A stretch of 64,000 bases of DNA from Chitinophagales bacterium (GTDB lineage: Bacteria; Bacteroidota; Bacteroidia; Chitinophagales; UBA10324). The position numbers and the translations under genes were made by a program. Under the pieces are notes generated by a model that saw only the letters and a program-made list of their open reading frames with translations, had not been told where the DNA came from and ran no database searches. Shown here in pieces: positions 5,352 to 38,642 of the stretch. How positions within the stretch are numbered: position 1 is the stretch's first letter; the number at the start of each line of letters is the position of its first letter. The stretch is taken from positions 2,009-66,008 of the forward strand of contig JBBQJW010000017.1 in the NCBI GenBank assembly GCA_038326325.1, written 5' to 3'.

Positions 5352-6647
5352 ATGAAAAAAATATTCTCATTACTTCTCTCTCTTTTCGTTTTCAGTGTTA
5401 CATACGCGCAAACAATTCCTGTTGCACCGCCGCAGGATTCAATCATCATTCTGATGAATGGCATTGCCCATTTAGGAAATGGTGAAGTGATTGAAAATTC
5501 CATTATCGAAATTGTGAAAGGAAAAATTGCAATGATTGGTGATGCGCGAACAATCCGATTAGAAAAATCAAATGCAAAAATCATAAACATCTATGGCAAG
5601 CATGTGTATCCCGGATTGATTGCGTGTAACAGTAATTTAGGACTGAATGAAATTGAAGCGGCTCGCGCCACACGCGATGCGAACGAGGTTGGTGATTTCA
5701 ATCCGAACATCAGAAGCATCATCGCATACAACACAGATTCAAAAGTGATCGCGACTGTTCGCTCCAATGGAATTTTGTTGGCGCAGGTTGTTCCGCAGGG
5801 CGGAATTATTTCAGGTTCATCTTCTGTTATGCAACTCGACGCGTGGAATTGGGAGGACGCTGCTTACAAAACCGACGAAGGAATTCATCTCAACTGGCCC
5901 TCGTACTTCACCGCGCATTTTGACAATCCCGATGGCGGAACAGTTGGCTTGAATGAAAAATACGTGGAGCAGGTTCAGAACATTCGAAATTTTTTCGATG
6001 AAGCGAAAGCGTATTCACAAACTGTTACACACGAAAACACGAACCTGAAGTTCGAAGCGATGCGCGAATTGTTTTCCGGGAAGAAAATTTTTTTCATTCA
6101 CGCGGATGGCGTGAAAGAAATTACCGGGGCGGTGCTTTTCGCAAAATCTTATAACATGCGATGCGTGATAGTTGGTGGTAGCGACGCATGGAAATGCACT
6201 GATATTTTAGTCGCTAATCATGTGTCGGTGATACTCGGTAGAATTCAATCGCTGCCAGGTTCAACGGATGATGATTATGATTTGCCCTACAAAACTCCGG
6301 CGCTCTTGAAAAAAGCGGGAGTAGATTTTTGTTTGAGCATGGATGGTTTCTGGCAGCAGCGCAATCTTTCTTTTCTTGGCGGAGAAGCGATTGCTTACGG
6401 AGAAATAAGTAAGGAAGAAGCGCTGCGATACATCACTTCAAATGCTGCGCGCATTCTTGGAATTGATAGTGTAACAGGAACTCTAGAATCAGGGAAGGAC
6501 GCGAACATTATAGTGAGCGATGGAGATATTCTCGACATGAAAACCAACAATATCATTTACGCTTTCATACAAGGTCGGGAAATAAATCTCGACGACAAAC
6601 AAAAAGACTTGTATGAAGTTTATAAAGCGAAGTATGGAATAAAATAA
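5352..6647 (+). CDS. secreted amidohydrolase family protein
   Basis: Signal peptide MKKIFSLLLSLFVFSVTYAQ and a C-terminal GTLESGKDANIIV motif. The start is set at the ATG at 5352, because the track start at 5292 overlaps the upstream gene. Confidence 0.75.
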   Translation: MKKIFSLLLSLFVFSVTYAQTIPVAPPQDSIIILMNGIAHLGNGEVIENSIIEIVKGKIAMIGDARTIRLEKSNAKIINIYGKHVYPGLIACNSNLGLNEIEAARATRDANEVGDFNPNIRSIIAYNTDSKVIATVRSNGILLAQVVPQGGIISGSSSVMQLDAWNWEDAAYKTDEGIHLNWPSYFTAHFDNPDGGTVGLNEKYVEQVQNIRNFFDEAKAYSQTVTHENTNLKFEAMRELFSGKKIFFIHADGVKEITGAVLFAKSYNMRCVIVGGSDAWKCTDILVANHVSVILGRIQSLPGSTDDDYDLPYKTPALLKKAGVDFCLSMDGFWQQRNLSFLGGEAIAYGEISKEEALRYITSNAARILGIDSVTGTLESGKDANIIVSDGDILDMKTNNIIYAFIQGREINLDDKQKDLYEVYKAKYGIK

Positions 6648-6650
6648 TTT

Positions 6651-6956
6651 CTAATTCTCAAATTCGATTGTATAAAGCGTGCGGCTTGCGCTTTCGCAAA
6701 GAGGAGCAACCTCTTTGTATAAAGCAACTGCTTTTTCGTTGGTCATCCATTGGTAATTTTTAAATCCAATGTCCTGAAAACTTCTCAAACTCATTTCCAA
6801 AACCATAGTGTATGCAGGACCAGTGAGGTCGGTAAGTATGCGGACTTTCGGCTTGTCTTTAGCGTCTTTAAATTGTTCGAAAATTTCTTTCCAAAGCGCA
6901 AGCGCCTCCTTCATTTTTCCAAACTTGATTTTAAATTCTGTGCGTTCGATAATCAT
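6651..6956 (-). CDS. small hypothetical protein (possible dimeric alpha/beta-barrel fold)
   Basis: ORF on the minus strand. The internal start MIIERTEFKIKFGK is favoured over the 7028 start. No recognisable catalytic motif. Confidence 0.45.
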   Translation of the reverse strand: MIIERTEFKIKFGKMKEALALWKEIFEQFKDAKDKPKVRILTDLTGPAYTMVLEMSLRSFQDIGFKNYQWMTNEKAVALYKEVAPLCESASRTLYTIEFEN

Positions 6957-7101
6957 AATATTTGCTTTTGTTGCAGCGAATCTAATACAAGTGAACACGG
7001 ATTGAAACAGATTGAAAAGATTTTTCACGGATTAAAATCCGTCGTTATCAGTAGCATCCGTATGAATCAGTGTCCTATGAATTTTTATTTTCGCCCCCAC
7101 A

Positions 7102-7743
7102 ATGGGAAAAAACAAATTGAAGCATTTCGCCGAGATGGAAACATTCACCAATGTTTTTCAGAAGGCGACGGCGATGAAAGGAAAATGGAATGAAGTTTTT
7201 TTTCAAAATGGAAATTCTGTTACACTTGAACTGGGCTGCGGCAAAGGGGAATATTCAGTAGCGCTCGCTAAAAATTATCCTGAAAGAAATTTTATCGGTA
7301 TTGACATCAAAGGAGCAAGAATCTGGCGCGGAGCGAAAACCGCGCTCGAAGAACAAATAAAAAATGTTTGCTTTCTGCGTGCGCAGGTTGATCATCTTCC
7401 TGAATATTTTGAAAAGAATTCTATTGATGAAATCTGGCTCACATTTTCCGACCCGCACTTACCGAAGAGCGAAGCAAGACGAAGACTGACTTCTCCAAAA
7501 TTTATTTCCATCTATCGCGAAGTATTAAAGCCCGCCGGAATCATTCACCTGAAAACAGATTCTTCCGTGCTTTATGATTTTACCCTTGAAGTAATTGCGG
7601 AACTGAAACTGAAAATGCTCTGGCACTCAAATGATATTTATGCCGCCGAGCTTCCTGATAAAATTCTCGAAGTAAAAACTTACTACGAGGAAATGAATCT
7701 GAAAAAAGGAAAGACGATTAAGTATGTGCGATTTGGTTTATGA
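7102..7743 (+). CDS. trmB: tRNA (guanine-N7)-methyltransferase
   Basis: Shows LELGCGKGEY (SAM motif), IGIDIKG and WLTFSDPH.K, which are typical of TrmB. Confidence 0.9.
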   Translation: MGKNKLKHFAEMETFTNVFQKATAMKGKWNEVFFQNGNSVTLELGCGKGEYSVALAKNYPERNFIGIDIKGARIWRGAKTALEEQIKNVCFLRAQVDHLPEYFEKNSIDEIWLTFSDPHLPKSEARRRLTSPKFISIYREVLKPAGIIHLKTDSSVLYDFTLEVIAELKLKMLWHSNDIYAAELPDKILEVKTYYEEMNLKKGKTIKYVRFGL

Positions 7744-7826
7744 GATAGGGCTTCACGCAAAGGCGCAGGGGCGCAAAGTTTTTCTTCGATGTATTTCTTT
7801 GCTCCTTAGCGAGCTTTGCGTGAAAA

Positions 7827-8228
7827 TTATTTTATTTCCTGACACAATTCAATCAATACTCCGTTGGTGCTTTTCGGATGAAGGAAGATGACCAATTTAT
7901 TATCTGCTCCTTTGAAAGGTTCTTCTCTGGTGAAAACAAATCCCGCCTCTTTCAACCTTTTAATTTCTGAATTGATGTCGGCGACTTCATAAGCAATGTG
8001 ATGCATTCCTTCGCCGCGTGCGGCAATAAATTTTCCGATGGCTCCTTCTGCGTTTGTTGTTTCTACCAATTCAATTTTTGTGTCGCCGGTTTTAAAGAAG
8101 GCGGTCGTCACCATTTCTGATTCTACTTTTTCAATTTTATAACAAGGGGTGTTCAACAGTGCTTCAAATAATTTTTTACTTGCTTCGAGATTCTTTACCG
8201 CAATACCAATGTGTTCAACTTTCAGCAT
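7827..8228 (-). CDS. mce: methylmalonyl-CoA epimerase (VOC/glyoxalase fold)
   Basis: The 133-aa ORF has HIGIAV, ...GEGMHHIAYEV... and VLIEL, the typical MCE pattern. Confidence 0.85.
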   Translation of the reverse strand: MLKVEHIGIAVKNLEASKKLFEALLNTPCYKIEKVESEMVTTAFFKTGDTKIELVETTNAEGAIGKFIAARGEGMHHIAYEVADINSEIKRLKEAGFVFTREEPFKGADNKLVIFLHPKSTNGVLIELCQEIK

Positions 8229-8445
8229 GGAATTCTTTTTTACAAAGATAAATTTTTACCACAGAAAAGTTTTTTTACCACAGAGTCAAAAGAGTATTGC
8301 ACAGAGTAGCACAGAAAGAAAACTAGGTGAAACTCTTGATTTTACTCTGAGAAACTCTGTGGTTTGAAGCAAAAGGAACTCTATGAAAAAACTCTGTGTT
8401 ACTCCGTAGTGAAGACCTAAATTTGCAGAAGTAAATTATAAAACA

Positions 8446-8772
8446 ATGATACAGATTAGTGAACACGCGAAAAGTAAAGTGACTGAAATTCTGAAGACCG
8501 AAGGAAAAGATGATTCGTACTTCGTTCGGGTTTCTGTTGTGGGCGGCGGTTGCAGTGGTTTGAGTTACAAAATGGAATTTGACCACGACCTGAAAAAAGA
8601 AGACCAGGTTTTTGAAGATAAAGGAATGAAACTCGTTACCGACCTCCGCAGTTTTTTATATCTGTGTGGTACCACTCTCGACCATAGCGACGGACTGAAC
8701 GGAAAGGGTTTTCATTTCGTGAACCCGAATGCTACTCGCACCTGCGCTTGCGGGGAGAGTTTTGCGGTTTAA
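8446..8772 (+). CDS. erpA: iron-sulfur cluster insertion protein (HesB/IscA/ErpA family)
   Basis: Has GGGCSGLSY and a C-terminal CACGESF cysteine signature. Confidence 0.9.
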   Translation: MIQISEHAKSKVTEILKTEGKDDSYFVRVSVVGGGCSGLSYKMEFDHDLKKEDQVFEDKGMKLVTDLRSFLYLCGTTLDHSDGLNGKGFHFVNPNATRTCACGESFAV

Positions 8773-8854
8773 TACAAATAAAACTGTAACAGTAGCGCCG
8801 ATTTCAGATTGTCTGAACCGAGATTAAACTGATTAATGGATTTATAGGATTAAG

Positions 8855-8888
8855 CCCTCTCGGAGATTTTTTTTTGAGAGGGTTTTTT
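8855..8888 (+). terminator. rho-independent terminator after erpA
   Basis: Stem CCCTCTC (8855-8861) pairs with GAGAGGG (8876-8882) and is followed by TTTTTT. Confidence 0.6.
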
Positions 8889-8980
8889 GTTTGAAAAAAA
8901 ATTAATTTGGCGGTTGCTAAAAAGCCTACTGTTGAAAACACACAGGCAGGGGCAGAAGGTGTAACACCGACAAACAAAAA

Positions 8981-9027
8981 ATAAAAACCGCAAAGTCCCT
9001 TCGGGAGACTGTGCGGGACAAAAAAAT
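8981..9027 (-). repeat. hairpin repeat copy 1 (terminator-like on the minus strand)
   Basis: AAAACCGCAAAGTCCCTTCGGGAGACTGTGCGGGAC is near-identical to the copy at 9259-9306. On the minus strand the hairpin is followed by a T-run. Confidence 0.6.
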
Positions 9028-9044
9028 AAAAAAATAAAAAAAAA

Positions 9045-9233
9045 ATGATACAATTAGATATACCAGCATCATACTTTTTGGAAGAGTTGCAACGGCAACT
9101 TCTAATATTACCTGAAGATGAAACGGGAATAATTATTACAATAAATGATGAAGAGATTGTTCGGAAAGTTAGGGTCTCTGTTGACTACAGAAATAAAAGG
9201 TGGTGGATTTTGGGAATTGAGCAGATAGGTTAA
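9045..9233 (+). CDS. orphan 62-aa hypothetical ORF between two hairpin repeats
   Basis: The only support is an open frame with an ATG directly after an A-rich tract. No recognisable family. Confidence 0.25.
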   Translation: MIQLDIPASYFLEELQRQLLILPEDETGIIITINDEEIVRKVRVSVDYRNKRWWILGIEQIG

Positions 9234-9258
9234 AATAAAATTTCAAAAATCAAAAAGA

Positions 9259-9306
9259 ATTAAAACCGCACAGTCCCCTGCAGGAGACTGTGCGGGGACG
9301 AAAAAA
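9259..9306 (-). terminator. hairpin repeat copy 2, probable kmo terminator
   Basis: A 10-bp stem CCGCACAGTC / GACTGTGCGG. On the minus strand it is followed by TTTTAATTCTTTTT. Confidence 0.55.
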
Positions 9307-9528
9307 CTGGTTACAGCTTTTTCGCTATGATAGCGCTATAGGATTAGTAATTGTTACGGTGTAACGGAATCACGCTTTCGATATAGTGTTGCCTGCGTGA
9401 GTGATTGTAGTGGAAATCATTTTTTGTGATTACACAAAAAATATTGAAACGAAAAGCACGACAGCATTTTTTTGAATACAAAAAAATGGTGGCACGCCCG
9501 ACACTTCGACAAGCTAAGTGTTACAGTG

Positions 9529-10863
9529 TTACAGGTATTCCTTAATCATATTCTGAATTTCAGCGGAAGAAAATTTCTCTTCGAGATTTTCAATCTGAAA
9601 AAGTTTCTCGAGCAATTCGTCGTGATGCTTTCCGATTCGCATGGCTTCGGAATACGGAATGTGCGTGAACGAAACCATGGAGTAAGCCGGAATAAATTTT
9701 TCGGGAAACGCAACGGCAATCATTTTCTCGATTTGCTTTTTGCGTAGGAATTTTTTGTCGGCGACGAGGTCGCGCATCTCCACAAAATTGTTGAGCGCCA
9801 TATCACAAATGGCGTCGGCGTTTATTTTTCGCGCCTGCTGATAGAGCGGCAGAATGGTGTTCCAGTCGTCGGTGTAACGGTACATGAGTTCGCCGAGTGC
9901 GGTGCAGTCTTCGAAACCGCAATTCATTCCCTGCCCGAAAAACGGAACCACGGCGTGCGCTGCGTCGCCGATGAGCGCCGCTTTGTTTTTGTAAACCCAC
10001 GGATAACATTTCACATACACGAGCGACGAAGTGGGGTTGCTGAAAAAATCTTTTTTGTATGAAGGCATCATCGTCACGGCATCTGGAAAATATTTAGTGA
10101 AAAATTTTTCTGCTTCGTCTTCCGTTTTAATCGTGGCGAAAGATTCTTCTCCTTCGTTGTGAAAAAATAAAGTGCAGGTAAAACTTCCATCCATGTTGGG
10201 CAACGCGATGAGCATGAAATTTTTTCGCGGCCAGATGTGCAGCGCGTTTTTCTCCATCAGGAATTCGCCGTTCTCTCCGGCGGGAATATGCAGTTCTTTA
10301 TAACTGTGTTCGATGTAGGTCTGCGAATAATCGAAGCGATCTGTCTTGAGCATGGAGCTTCGCAACGCGGAGAAAGCGCCGTCGGCTCCGAAAATCAATT
10401 CCGAATTTTTTGTCGTGCGTTGATTGGTGTTGTGGTCTTCGAAAATCATTTCGCCTTTTTCGAGATTCACTTCGTCGCAGCGGTGATTGAAATAAATTTT
10501 TACTCCGGATTGTCTCTCCGCCAAATCCATCATGGCCATGTTGAGTCCACCACGCGACACGGAATAAATCGCCTGTCCTTCTTTTCCATAAGGTTGAAAT
10601 GAAAGTGTGCCGTCGGTGTTGTGCACCATTCTTCCATTCATAGGAATAGCGACTTTGCGAATCTCTTCTTCGAGTCCGGCACCAATCAATCCTTTCCATC
10701 CTCTGTCGCTGAGTGCGAGATTGATGGAACGACCGGCACTGATTTTTTCTGTGCGCATATCGGGGCGACGCTCATAAATGTCAACCTTGTATCCGCGCTT
10801 CGCGAGATAAACCGAGAGCAGCGAACCGACTAACCCCGCTCCGAGAATTGTTGCTTGTTTCAT
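9529..10863 (-). CDS. kmo: kynurenine 3-monooxygenase (FAD-dependent)
   Basis: Has the GAGLVGSLLSVYLAKRGY FAD fold, the DALIGDAAHAVVPFFGQGMN motif, and the right length and context next to kynU. Confidence 0.9.
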   Translation of the reverse strand: MKQATILGAGLVGSLLSVYLAKRGYKVDIYERRPDMRTEKISAGRSINLALSDRGWKGLIGAGLEEEIRKVAIPMNGRMVHNTDGTLSFQPYGKEGQAIYSVSRGGLNMAMMDLAERQSGVKIYFNHRCDEVNLEKGEMIFEDHNTNQRTTKNSELIFGADGAFSALRSSMLKTDRFDYSQTYIEHSYKELHIPAGENGEFLMEKNALHIWPRKNFMLIALPNMDGSFTCTLFFHNEGEESFATIKTEDEAEKFFTKYFPDAVTMMPSYKKDFFSNPTSSLVYVKCYPWVYKNKAALIGDAAHAVVPFFGQGMNCGFEDCTALGELMYRYTDDWNTILPLYQQARKINADAICDMALNNFVEMRDLVADKKFLRKKQIEKMIAVAFPEKFIPAYSMVSFTHIPYSEAMRIGKHHDELLEKLFQIENLEEKFSSAEIQNMIKEYL

Positions 10864-10867
10864 ATAA

Positions 10868-10896
10868 TAGAACGCTGATTTAACTGATAGGTCATG
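10868..10896. repeat. left arm of the 29-bp inverted repeat enclosing the GxxExxY gene
   Basis: TAGAACGCTGATTTAACTGATAGGTCATG matches the reverse complement of 11347-11375 at 28 of 29 positions. Confidence 0.9.
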
Positions 10897-10926
10897 ATTT
10901 AAAATGATTTCTTCTTGAAGAAAATT

Positions 10927-11349
10927 TTATGATGATTCATGATTTTTAAATTCGTTTGAAAAAACTTTTCTTTTGAATTGAGGTGTCTTACCAAAATTCA
11001 AAAGCATTCCCACTTCAGTATTGGTAGCTCTCAAATAATTTAAAAGTTGTGCTTCGTGCTCGTCGATAATTCCTTCCGCGGCTTTTATTTCTATAATGAC
11101 AGAATCATTCACAACAATATCCGCAAAATAATTTCCGACCGATTCTTCATTGTAGAAAACTTCAATGGGTTGTTGTCTTACACAAGTCAATCCTAATTTT
11201 CTCAGTTCAATCAATAAAGCATTTTCATAAACCTTCTCAAGAAATCCATAACCTAATTTATTATAAACATTATAGAATCCTTTAATAATCACTGAAGTTA
11301 TTTCAGAGTGCTTGTATTCATCAAGAATGTATTTATCAGTATTTATCAT
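10927..11349 (-). CDS. GxxExxY protein (PD-(D/E)XK-like family often found in 23S rRNA intervening sequences)
   Basis: Has the GYGFLEKVYENAL (GxxExxY) motif and ADIVVNDSVIIEIKA, in a 140-aa ORF. Confidence 0.85.
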   Translation of the reverse strand: MINTDKYILDEYKHSEITSVIIKGFYNVYNKLGYGFLEKVYENALLIELRKLGLTCVRQQPIEVFYNEESVGNYFADIVVNDSVIIEIKAAEGIIDEHEAQLLNYLRATNTEVGMLLNFGKTPQFKRKVFSNEFKNHESS

Positions 11350-11375
11350 GACCTATCAGCTAAATCAGCGTTCTA
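11347..11375. repeat. right arm of the 29-bp inverted repeat enclosing the GxxExxY gene
   Basis: CATGACCTATCAGCTAAATCAGCGTTCTA. It contains the GxxExxY start codon and the kynU stop codon. Confidence 0.9.
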
Positions 11376-12639
11376 TCTTTTCCAGAACATCTCCCACTCG
11401 ATAAACATCTTCAAACGAATTATACAATGGTATAGGCGACATGCGAATAACATTTGGTTCGCGCCAATCGGCGATTACTCCGTGTGAGGCGAGTTGCTCG
11501 AAAATTTTCTTTCCATCTTTTTTCGCGATGAGCGATAATTGACACCCGCGTTCAGAACTGTTTTTTGGCGTGATGATTTTTAATTCGTGCTCAGGATATT
11601 TCTGATTGAAATGGTTAAGTATAAATTCTAAGTAAGTTGTTAGTTGTTGGCTTTTAGTAATTAGTTTTTGAATCCCCGCTTCCGAAAAAATTTCCAATGA
11701 TGCTCTGTGAATTGCCATTGCGAAAACAGGCGCATTACTCACCTGCCATGCGCCTGCTCCTGCCTGCGGATGAAATCCTTTCTTCATTTGAAACCGAGTG
11801 GTCTCATCATTTCCCCACCAGCCAGCGAAGCGTGGTAAATCATTTTTACCACTGTGTTTTTCGTGAACGAAAATTCCGCCTACTCCTCCGGCGCCACTGT
11901 TCAGATATTTATAAGAACACCAGCAAGCGAAATCAATATTCCAGTCGTGTAGTTTCAAGTCAACATTTCCGGCGGCGTGCGCCAAATCAAAACCGACTGT
12001 TACACCGGTTTCGTGACCGGCTTCGGTAATTTTTTTCAAGTCGAAATATTGTCCGCTGAGGTAATTGACTCCTCCGAATAAAATCAACGCGAGTTCATTT
12101 TTATTTTTTTCTATCTGTTCGAGAATGTCTTCTGTTCGAAGCGTGAATTCATTTTCTCTTGGAGAAATTTCAATGATGTCTATTTCAGGATTTCCGCCAT
12201 GAAATTTCACCTGGGTTTCAATCGCGTATTGATCTGATGGAAAAGCGTTCGCTTCCATCATGATTTTTTTTCTCTTTCCTTCCGGACGAAAAAAAGAAAC
12301 CATGAGCATGTGAAGATTCGCCGTAAGTGAATTCATCGCTACTACTTCTTCTTCCTTCGCCCCCACAATTTCCGCCAATTGTTTTCTTCCGAAATGATGA
12401 TAAGGAAACCACGGATTCTTGGCGTCGAAGTGTCCCTCCACACCGAGTTTTTCCCAATCCAAAAATTCCTGCTCAACAAAACTTCTCGCGCTCTTCGGTA
12501 AAAGCCCGAGTGAATTTCCGCAGAGATAAACTGCATCGTTTCCATTGTGTTTAGGAATGTGAAACCGCTCACGGAATTTTTTCAGCGTGTCGGCTTCATC
12601 CAATTGCCGTGCGAAGGATAAACTGTTTTCGAATTTCAT
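11365..12639 (-). CDS. kynU: kynureninase (PLP-dependent)
   Basis: The 424-aa ORF has CGNSLGL, FDLAHA.GN and WCSYKYLN.G.G motifs. Confidence 0.9.
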   Translation of the reverse strand: MKFENSLSFARQLDEADTLKKFRERFHIPKHNGNDAVYLCGNSLGLLPKSARSFVEQEFLDWEKLGVEGHFDAKNPWFPYHHFGRKQLAEIVGAKEEEVVAMNSLTANLHMLMVSFFRPEGKRKKIMMEANAFPSDQYAIETQVKFHGGNPEIDIIEISPRENEFTLRTEDILEQIEKNKNELALILFGGVNYLSGQYFDLKKITEAGHETGVTVGFDLAHAAGNVDLKLHDWNIDFACWCSYKYLNSGAGGVGGIFVHEKHSGKNDLPRFAGWWGNDETTRFQMKKGFHPQAGAGAWQVSNAPVFAMAIHRASLEIFSEAGIQKLITKSQQLTTYLEFILNHFNQKYPEHELKIITPKNSSERGCQLSLIAKKDGKKIFEQLASHGVIADWREPNVIRMSPIPLYNSFEDVYRVGDVLEKIER

Positions 12640-12751
12640 TTTTAAAAACTAATGGGCGAAAGATAAAAGGAAGAAGTTCGATTGAAAACGAGAAATGTTT
12701 TTCTCGCTGAAACATCGTCCGTTTTTCTCCGTGGCTCGTAATAACGGCGGC

Positions 12752-13774
12752 ATGGCATTACACGGTAAAATAATTTTTCGCGCTGATGGCGGGCCGAACC
12801 TCGGAATGAATCATTTGGTTCGTTGTGCAGCTTTAGCGGAAATGTTGCGCGAGCATTATGAATGCGTGCTGACGATTCGCTCTCCTAATCCGACCGCCTT
12901 GCAAATCATTGAAGGAGTTTTTCATTCCATTATTCCTTTGACCGTTACAGACCATTTTGATGGCGACGAATTGATTCCGCATTTACACGAAGGTGATATA
13001 GTGGTGATGGATGGGTTTCAATTTCACACCGCTTATCAGCAAAAAATTCACGCGAACAATAAACTTATTTGCATCGACGATTTGCACCAACATCATTTTG
13101 TCGCCGATGCCATTATTAATCACGCCGAAGGAATTTTGCCCGCTGATTATTCAACGGAAGAGTACACGCGTTTTTATCTCGGTTCTCGATACGCGATGAT
13201 TCGCGAACCATTTATTAACGCCACTCCGGAAAATCATGATTCGCAAAAATCAAATCGAGCGATGATTTGTATTGGAGGAAATGATATTCATAACACGACA
13301 TTAAAAGTGTTACAGTCATTAATTGACACAAAAACCGTAAATGAAATTGAATTGGTGGTGGGCAAACTAAATCCCAATCTCGATCTGATTAATGAATTTA
13401 TTCATTCGCAAAAGGAAATGAAAATTATGTTGTGTATGAATCTTCCAGTAAGTGAATTGTGCGATCTCATGAAGACTTCGCGGGTAATGATTTGTTCGGC
13501 GAATAATATTCTGCTCGAAGCGTGCGCGGCGGGTATGAAAATTATTTCAGGAATTACGCACGACGCTCAGCAAGGAGTGTTACAGGGGTTGGTCGCGAAA
13601 GGCGCGGTGAATAGTTGCGGAAATTTTTTAACCGCCTCGCCCGAAGAATTAAAATCGCGCTTCGAATTATTTCTGAATAACGATACTCATACTGTTACAC
13701 AACAGACCGCGCAACGCGAATTGATTGACGGGCTTTCGCCTGAAAGGTTGTTCGAGATATTCAGTAAGTTGTAA
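12752..13774 (+). CDS. PseG-like UDP-sugar hydrolase / GT28-type glycosyltransferase family protein
   Basis: The N-terminus IIFRADGGPNLGMNHLVRCAALAEML resembles PseG. The start is moved to the ATG at 12752. Confidence 0.45.
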   Translation: MALHGKIIFRADGGPNLGMNHLVRCAALAEMLREHYECVLTIRSPNPTALQIIEGVFHSIIPLTVTDHFDGDELIPHLHEGDIVVMDGFQFHTAYQQKIHANNKLICIDDLHQHHFVADAIINHAEGILPADYSTEEYTRFYLGSRYAMIREPFINATPENHDSQKSNRAMICIGGNDIHNTTLKVLQSLIDTKTVNEIELVVGKLNPNLDLINEFIHSQKEMKIMLCMNLPVSELCDLMKTSRVMICSANNILLEACAAGMKIISGITHDAQQGVLQGLVAKGAVNSCGNFLTASPEELKSRFELFLNNDTHTVTQQTAQRELIDGLSPERLFEIFSKL

Positions 13775-28081: not shown

Positions 28082-28225
28082 GATGCATCACTTTCCCTTG
28101 TAACGCAATACTGGCGTAGTAAGTATGAAAATCACCGTCATTCTTTTGTCACAAAAAACAAGACAATTTGAATGTATTAAAAAATCAGCTTTAATCTGTC
28201 ACATCAGCGGCATCAGTATTCCGGT

Positions 28226-28560
28226 CAATAGCGACGGAAACCATCGCGAAAGCAAAGTAATCTGCCGAAACAACAAGGTAAGCGAAAACAATAGCTTCGG
28301 AAACAAAAGCAATGCTGTTGTCACTTGAAACAATGACGGGTAAGCGGAAGCAATAGCAGGTTAAACAAAAACAATAGCAAGGTAACTGACTGCAACAACG
28401 AGGTAAACAAAAACAATTGCATCGGAAACCATCTCGAAAGCAAAGTCAATCACAGAAACAGCGAGGTAAATAAAAACAATAGTGTCAGAAACAATCGCGA
28501 AGGCAATGTAAACTGGAGAAATGGAAGAGTAATTGAAATCAACAAAATAGGAATCACAAA
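28226..28560 (-). repeat. array of about 15 degenerate tandem repeats with ~21-bp period
   Basis: CAAT(A/G)GC anchors sit at 28289, 28310, 28331, 28351, 28372, 28393 and 28414. The minus-strand consensus is yTTTTGTTTACCtnGCTATTG. A higher-order duplication links 28235-28305 to 28423-28493. Confidence 0.8.
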
Positions 28561-38068: not shown

Positions 38069-38642
38069 GAATTCATTTTTATCATTCAGTGGTCTTTAAC
38101 TCATTGTCGTTACCAACAAAACCCTAAAAAATTGTTAGTTCATGTTTGTAAACGATACAAGATTTACTCAACCGGACTTAGTTGTTACATCTTGATTTTA
38201 GTAATGTTTTTAAGGTAAAAAAATTCATACTACACCAACATAACTTCAATGAGTGTGTTCTAAATTATTTATCAAGATAAAGCGAGAAGAGTTTTTTTTT
38301 GGTATGTTCACAACAACGCTAAATGATTGATTAGTTGGTAACTTGATTGTTGGTGTAAATGTTAATTGTGTGATTGGAATATTGAAAACTGAGATTGAGC
38401 TGATATAAAAAAATACTTGTACACGAATTCACACCGCTAATAATTTGTAATAATAATTTTATAAAAAATTTAATTAAAAATACTGTTGGTAAGAGTGAAA
38501 AACTTCCTTTATAAAAATTTTTATTAAACCTCTTACATGAATCAAAAAAAATAATGGAACGCAGATCATTATGATTTTTATGATAAGCGCAGATAAAAAA
38601 TCTGTTTTATGTTTTATTTATAAAATAGGTCTATTAAAAAAA

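Follow-up and report, generated by a model that had tools for sequence, protein, structure and literature searches.

A GxxExxY gene bracketed by phased GAT arms in a kynU-kmo operon: a probable selfish mobile element, apparently not described before

In the 64-kb stretch of DNA analysed here (the window), a small gene of the GxxExxY family separates the kynureninase gene kynU from a kmo-type monooxygenase gene on the same strand, and it is enclosed by a long inverted repeat. What is such a repeat for? It could close an RNA stem through which an operon transcript is processed, or it could mark the DNA ends of something that has been inserted. The original prediction likened the arrangement to an rRNA intervening sequence, and proposed that the family forms a self-contained mobile or processable module. 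The locus and its neighbours, read from the sense strand of the operon, are as follows.

9529-10863, minus strand: kmo-type FAD monooxygenase gene, the downstream flank, which adjoins kynU in many relatives
10867-10908, minus strand: 3' arm, reverse-complementary to the 5' arm; its four units start with ATC on the sense strand
10927-11349, minus strand: GxxExxY / PDDEXK_3 gene, 140 aa (PF13366, 139.6 bits; TIGR04256, 133.6 bits)
11335-11376, minus strand: 5' arm (sense orientation), with four 9-10-nt units ending in GAT: GAACGCTGAT, TTAGCTGAT, AGGTCATGAT and AAATACTGAT
11365-12639, minus strand: kynU (kynureninase), the upstream flank (TIGR01814, 453 bits)

The inverted repeat and the protein that it encloses

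A repeat search delimited two arms of 42 nt each (10867-10908 and 11335-11376), which are 88% complementary and have 426 nt between them. Two copies of their 29-nt core are present in the window, one exact and one with 1 mismatch, whereas 0 occurrences are expected from 100 shuffles of the sequence. The single mismatch places a G of the 5' arm opposite a U of the 3' arm in the minus-strand RNA, the sense orientation for all three genes. When the 546-nt RNA of 10850-11395 (minus strand) was folded, 33 contiguous terminal pairs closed the structure, with a minimum free energy of -145.8 kcal/mol as compared to -103 kcal/mol for shuffled sequences (z = -8.6). Together, the shuffle count and the fold led us to reject the idea that the repeat arose by chance. 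Its 5' arm includes the kynU stop codon (11365-11367), the ATG of the enclosed gene (11347-11349) forms the inner end of the core arm, and 4 nt separate the end of the 3' arm from the kmo ATG (10861-10863). Thus, the original prediction had described the 29-nt repeat with its G-U pair, its position and its coverage of the neighbouring start and stop codons correctly, and the stem that it expected from folding does form.

The arm also supplies the end of the upstream protein. The last two codons and the stop codon of kynU (ER*) come from the arm, whereas KynU ends in ...KKIF* in those relatives whose site is empty, and the first 18 nt of the 5' arm carry stop codons in all three frames (TAG, TGA and TAG at arm positions 3, 11 and 16). 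The cassette has a GC content of 30% (GC3 24%), as compared to 42% and 47% (GC3 40% and 55%) for the flanking genes. No Rfam family matched the arms, and no rRNA match was found in 6500-13500. Just downstream of kmo, on the opposite strand, there is a match to Flavo-1 RNA (RF01705) at 9386-9467 (plus strand; 58.3 bits, gathering score 42). The stretch was found in one DNA sediment metagenome only and in no RNA run; the contigs of this metagenome contain the occupied form alone, although contigs of this kind cannot show absence.

The 140-aa protein exceeds the cut-offs of both profiles of its family (22 bits for PF13366 and 35 bits for TIGR04256), and PF13366 is its sole Pfam match. It contains the eponymous motif as G35-x-x-E38-x-x-Y41, and six residues that are invariant across 44 diverse members of the family (E38, D77, E87, K89, Q101 and Y105) are intact. 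An exact-sequence look-up returned no record of this protein, and a search of the PDB by sequence gave no real match. The AlphaFold2 model (pLDDT 90.9) has its best PDB fold matches in Cas4 SSO0001, LHK-Exo and lambda exonuclease, followed by archaeal Hjc. Judged by its conserved residues and its model, the protein is a predicted minimal RecB/Cas4/lambda-exonuclease-like PD-(D/E)XK domain with its active-site residues intact. The N-terminal 12 residues, which are encoded by the arm units, are predicted to be disordered, and in the related locus L002 the equivalent ATG meets a stop codon six codons on, the ORF beginning downstream. The family is huge: at least 8000 homologues of the window protein were found, all significant, and thousands of them are 65-79% identical to it. 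A census of PD-(D/E)XK proteins in 2012 listed the function of PF13366/TIGR04256 as unknown (PMC3424549), and our search of the literature found no description of the genomic design of this family.

These properties bear on the comparison with rRNA. If the cassette were an RNA-level module like an rRNA intervening sequence, its stem would be an RNase III site from which the cassette RNA is excised, uncoupling kynU from kmo and hiding the start codon of the enclosed gene. The uninterrupted 33-bp duplex with one G-U pair is what such a module would have, the RNAs of L002 and of a second related locus, L003, also close a terminal stem, and the intervening sequence of Coxiella has the same anatomy, with about 430 nt and a 28-bp stem that is cut by RNase III (PMC4990558). 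However, the start codon within the stem is not conserved, as seen in L002, and the family is not one of intervening sequences. The original prediction had regarded GxxExxY proteins mainly as products of the ORF within 23S rRNA intervening sequences, but that ORF encodes S23p, a four-helix-bundle pentamer (PMC4990558), whereas the window protein matches PF13366 alone, and 0 of 40 sampled GxxExxY loci had any Rfam or rRNA match.

Insertion history of the kynU-kmo junction

A scan with KynU, taking one genome per species, gave 74 loci, seven of which come from close relatives, namely Chitinophagaceae metagenome-assembled genomes with KynU 84-89% identical. In three of them (L005, L006 and L007, kynU 84-87% identical) the junction is empty, and the kynU TAG is followed by 4 nt and the kmo ATG (...AAAATATTTTAG AGAA ATG). 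Cassette-free versions of the spacer, for which the original prediction had proposed to look, are therefore found among close relatives. The empty junction also has a natural variant in L006 (L006:5260-5285), where an extra A in a poly-A run shifts the kynU frame to give an NILEK* end that overlaps the kmo start. L002 carries at this junction a GxxExxY gene 76% identical to that of the window, and L003 one that is only 66% identical. Because the junction is empty in L005-L007, and because about 20 more distant kynU-kmo relatives have short spacers without a GxxExxY gene, the empty state is taken as ancestral. Comparison of these loci thus shows that the cassette was inserted into an ancestrally tight kynU-kmo junction.

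The occupants of this junction do not share one history. In a tree of kynU and kmo, the window and L001 are basal, and L002, L003, L005, L006 and L007 form a tight crown group (92% support on protein). Between L002 and L003, the flanking genes have dS of 0.54-0.79 and dN of 0.03, whereas the GxxExxY genes have a saturated pS of 0.76 and dN of 0.29, and the arms have no sequence in common beyond the GAT motif. A FastTree phylogeny built from 167 proteins of the family unites the window with L002 and L151 in a clade of three members (support 0.96); L151 is a short contig whose kmo is 91% identical to that of the window. L003 falls elsewhere, and so does the group of L148 and L152, which likewise lies between kynU and kmo. 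Since these three sets separate in the tree, at least three cassette lineages have entered one junction, and the comparison shows it to have been filled, on this phylogenetic evidence, at least three times by unrelated cassettes of the GxxExxY family. The insertion point comes after one and the same Ile codon of the ancestral ...KKIF* end in L003 and in the window lineage (window, L002 and L151). The KynU ends supplied by the arms are IER* in the window lineage, INGTRI* in L003, MER* in L148 and LER* in L152.

Presence or absence at one precise junction between conserved genes, together with the fact that the cassettes of the window, L002 and L151 are mutually closest and occupy the same site, might be expected of a free-standing homing-endonuclease-like gene, which would cut cassette-free junction alleles and be copied in by repair after DNA exchange between relatives. 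We regard this as very unlikely. When the flanks of L003 and L002 were profiled for identity against the empty L005, no co-transferred tract was found beyond the last 30 kynU codons: there is no drop in identity there, so no long co-transferred flank is seen, and the co-conversion tract of a homing event is missing. Furthermore, unrelated cassettes occupy the same site, whereas related cassettes occupy different sites, for example the junction of frr and recJ in L149. Conserved inverted arms do not fit such a gene either, as they are, to our knowledge, not a feature of homing endonuclease genes.

The window junction has no unambiguous target-site duplication. A TA duplication would fit the comparison of the empty site (...AAATA and TTTTAG on the two sides of the insertion point) with the occupied site (...GATA, then the cassette as GAAC...GTTC, then TATT), but it is indistinguishable from the palindromic end of the arm. 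It should also be considered that not every shared cassette need reflect a separate arrival. The cassettes of the window and L002 have a dS of 1.1 and their hosts 1.2-1.3, and because the cassettes are as diverged as the hosts, this lineage may represent long vertical inheritance rather than movement.

Even so, the arms within that lineage have not simply decayed. In the window, L002 and L151, the similarity between the two arms of one cassette far exceeds that between either arm and its orthologues in the other genomes, and the arms of the window are nearly perfect despite a dS of about 1.1 in the gene. Such a pattern requires that the arms evolve in concert, that their pairing is selected for, or that fresh copies repeatedly take the place of old ones. 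Selection for pairing is what an RNA-level module would predict, and this counts in favour of that explanation. A trace of the third process may be present in L151 (L151:100-215), where a relic outer arm unit, ATAGAACGCTGA, gives the KynU end IER* and a second complete 5' arm comes 7 nt later; judging from this layout, an earlier cassette at the site seems to have given way to a later one. In L148 (L148:1-105) and L152 (L152:40-165), the GxxExxY ORF is preceded by a complete ORF-less hairpin of a 5' arm and a 3' arm, and an additional 3' arm lies downstream of it.

Other palindromes also occupy this spacer. Unrelated hairpins of about 60-80 nt are present in L001 (L001:5285-5353, about 70 nt) and L067 (L067:1043-1141). 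L028 contains an ORF-less palindrome (L028:2850-3051) of phased 9-10-nt units with GTTCAA, the other arm having TTGAAC, which by its sequence would be a second family of phased-unit palindromes at this junction. Thus, palindromic elements of various kinds seem to settle at the kynU-kmo junction. About 25 further relatives had no relic GAT arms in the spacer between kynU and kmo. The larger spacers of L014, L023, L038 and L059 were considered as cassettes and rejected, their contents being unrelated genes or a tandem repeat, which in L059 (L059:5263-5658) measures about 350 nt with units of the CCTATTGCCTATTA type. Taken together, the junction is a natural experiment that is found empty, with three unrelated cassette lineages, or with other palindromes, and evidence of this kind is needed before a cassette can be classed as an insertion element and not as a conserved regulator.

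Arms, ORF-less arrays and signs of movement across the family

The design of the window cassette recurs in the family. Among 58 other GxxExxY loci taken from metagenome contigs, with the same spacing elsewhere in the same loci as controls, the best inverted repeat bracketing the ORF scored above the 95th percentile of controls in 51 (median score 34 versus 17). On the sense strand, GAT in the 5' flank and ATC in the 3' flank each reach about twice the background density, and the spacing of GAT peaks at 9-10 nt (113 and 114 instances in the two flanks), a peak that the controls do not have. The outermost unit, ATAGAACRCNGAT, is common across the family, with the consensus (A)T(A/G)GAAC(A/G)CNGAT in unrelated loci, whereas the inner units vary freely between copies. 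The way in which the cassettes fit between their neighbours is also shared. Both neighbours point in the same direction as the cassette in 33 of 39 decidable cases. Measured from the outer end of the 5' arm, the upstream stop codon falls between -22 and +20 nt in 29 of 35 loci, and the next ATG is at most 30 nt from the 3' arm in 18 of 34. As these positions and orientations recur across loci, the flush fit seen in the window is typical of the family, and the survey shows that GxxExxY-family cassettes, at least in the contigs sampled, sit flush between co-directional genes.

The arms themselves provide a test of pairing in RNA. Among arm mismatches in 48 non-redundant loci, transitions that give G-U pairs in the sense RNA (62) are about as frequent as those that give G-U pairs only in the antisense RNA (58; p = 0.78), and transversions predominate (174). 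With no such G-U bias, the arms give no visible sign of selection for pairing in the sense transcript. In many loci, the two arms have only the phased GAT motif in common and would pair poorly. Units of GAT phased at 9-10 nt have instead the look of protein-binding DNA. These results, along with the existence of solo arms and ORF-less arrays described below, make an RNA-level module a decidedly unlikely account of the arms. From the original prediction, the idea of a self-contained insertable unit is supported by the empty sites, the unrelated occupants and the family-wide design, but a stem selected as an RNase III substrate is not supported, given the 62 versus 58 G-U counts, the transversions and the phased arrays.

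Several loci carry related cassettes in different surroundings. L110 and L115, two contigs of one metagenome, have a common 746-nt unit with 94% identity (97.5% over the ORF) between dissimilar flanking proteins, and L113 has this unit at 86-91% in a third context. The protein P0008, 74% identical to that of the window, is encoded between frr and recJ, in a cassette whose arm starts with ATGGAACGCTGATTATTATGAT, as does that of the kynU-kmo cassette of L148. In L110 and L115 (L110:2263-3008 and L115:2263-3008), the 746-nt unit is bounded by an outer inverted repeat, TGTCCTA ... TAGGACA, and flanked by a 6-bp AT palindrome, ATTAAT in L110 and AATATT in L115. From their position, these 6-bp palindromes could be the target-site duplication of a nested element.

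In addition to the kynU-kmo cassette, the window contains GAT arrays without an ORF at three further places, and in total it has five arrays of four or more units, as compared to 0.13 expected. The three further places are as follows.

6994-7074, no strand assigned: intergenic ORF-less palindrome of 4 + 4 GAT units, with outer ends GAACACGGAT ... ATCAGTGTCCTAT
28184-28220, minus strand: intergenic solo four-unit GAT array, which reads as a 3'-type arm on the plus strand
38548-38610, plus strand: solo four-unit 5'-type arm (ATGGAACGCAGAT CATTATGAT TTTTATGAT AAGCGCAGAT) followed by a short hairpin, in a 574-bp ORF-free gap

Beside the second of these, 28230-28540 consists of about 300 nt of non-coding degenerate repeats of the GAAACAAnnGCAAnnGTAA type without an ORF. 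Comparison of loci thus shows a near-identical cassette unit in two unrelated contexts, and the window has arms without an ORF outside the kynU-kmo cassette.

Dispersed arrays of this kind would also be expected if the cassette no longer moved and had been domesticated as a nuclease with its repeats, comparable to Ssn-NTS or REP-RAYT. The nuclease would then act in trans on GAT arrays elsewhere and might, for instance, restrict the recombination of incoming DNA. The strong conservation of the protein and its intact active site agree with such a role, and Ssn genes too are flanked by 20-50-nt inverted repeats, at which their products cut single-stranded DNA (PMC11893778). Nevertheless, the empty sites and unrelated occupants within a tight clade indicate recent gain or turnover, and only the outer arm unit is conserved while the inner ones differ freely. 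Domestication is therefore an unlikely explanation in our judgement, albeit the best placed of the three alternatives to a mobile cassette.

A probable selfish operon-riding cassette and the described systems nearest to it

Considering the junction and the family together, the cassette has the appearance of a selfish mobile element, seemingly not described so far, rather than of an RNA-processing device. We consider it probable that 10867-11376 is an inserted, compositionally foreign, single-gene cassette, mobile or recently mobile, which rides selfishly on its operon and whose arms act as DNA. According to this proposal, the arms would be phased binding sites for the cassette's own nuclease or for a host factor, defining the ends that are cut and moved. 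The nuclease would bind and cut at the arms, with single-stranded or hairpin intermediates. Integration would be left to host functions, because we know of no strand-transfer chemistry for a PD-(D/E)XK domain alone.

The same design may explain how the insertion sits inside the operon without breaking it. The cassette would have no promoter of its own here and would ride on transcription of the operon, and its 5' arm would give a stop codon, in any frame, to the upstream gene that it clips. In the mRNA, the arms would pair, so that the insert is looped out and the end of kynU is brought beside the start of kmo. The cassette AUG, which lies in the stem 15 nt past the kynU UGA, would then be reached mainly when terminating ribosomes open the stem. 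Cleavage of the 33-bp duplex by RNase III is physically plausible, and it would be a side effect of the DNA design rather than the reason for the arms.

More tentatively, and with less confidence than in the case of the single cassette, GxxExxY cassettes could represent an undescribed class of prokaryotic mobile elements, whose sole protein is a minimal RecB/Cas4-like nuclease that recognises helically phased GAT arrays, which land precisely between co-directional genes and which leave ORF-less arrays as non-autonomous derivatives. If so, the intervening sequences with an ORF would represent, in rRNA, the strategy that these cassettes follow in operons. If the nuclease does recognise the GAT arms, the few nuclease-plus-palindrome systems (RAYT and Ssn) would gain a new enzyme class, much of the "hypothetical" intergenic clutter in Bacteroidota operons would be explained, and new sequence-specific nucleases might become available.

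Among known systems, the intervening sequences of 23S rRNA in Coxiella burnetii and Leptospira (PMC4990558) are alike in having about 430-510 nt with one small ORF, terminal inverted repeats and a stem of about 28-33 bp, in their low GC content relative to the host, in their sporadic distribution and in being part of a host transcript. In contrast, the cassette described here lies in the protein-coding operon kynU-kmo instead of 23S rRNA, its ORF encodes a PD-(D/E)XK protein (PF13366) rather than S23p, and its arms are phased GAT arrays. Homing endonuclease genes of phages and bacteria are likewise wedged between conserved genes and polymorphic between close relatives, but differ from the cassette, which has conserved inverted arms, shares its site with unrelated occupants and has no co-conversion tract. 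With regard to insertion sequences and MITEs, the terminal inverted repeats of the cassette are clear and the TA duplication at its junction is ambiguous, as described above, and the cassette has no DDE, serine, tyrosine or HUH transposase, its only ORF being the 140-aa PD-(D/E)XK domain.

By design, the nearest described systems appear to be REP-RAYT units and Ssn-NTS pairs, both with other enzyme folds and single hairpins. REP-RAYT units (REPtrons/TIRtrons; PMC3733652, PMC6006769) combine a single small nuclease-type gene with bracketing inverted repeats, lie between host genes and have gene-less repeat copies, but the cassette enzyme is not a Y1 HUH transposase, and the cassette arms are multi-unit arrays as opposed to a single REP hairpin. 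The window has a RAYT of its own (about 59.1-60.1 kb); a link between it and the cassette was rejected because its REP hairpins are unrelated to the arms. The Ssn GIY-YIG ssDNA nucleases with their NTS/SRM repeats (PMC11893778) are also very small single-domain nucleases, with 20-50-nt inverted repeats flanking most of their genes, a wide distribution and gene-less repeat copies. The cassette differs from them in its PD-(D/E)XK domain and its repeat architecture, and also in that direct comparative evidence of insertion and turnover at a site is available for the cassette.
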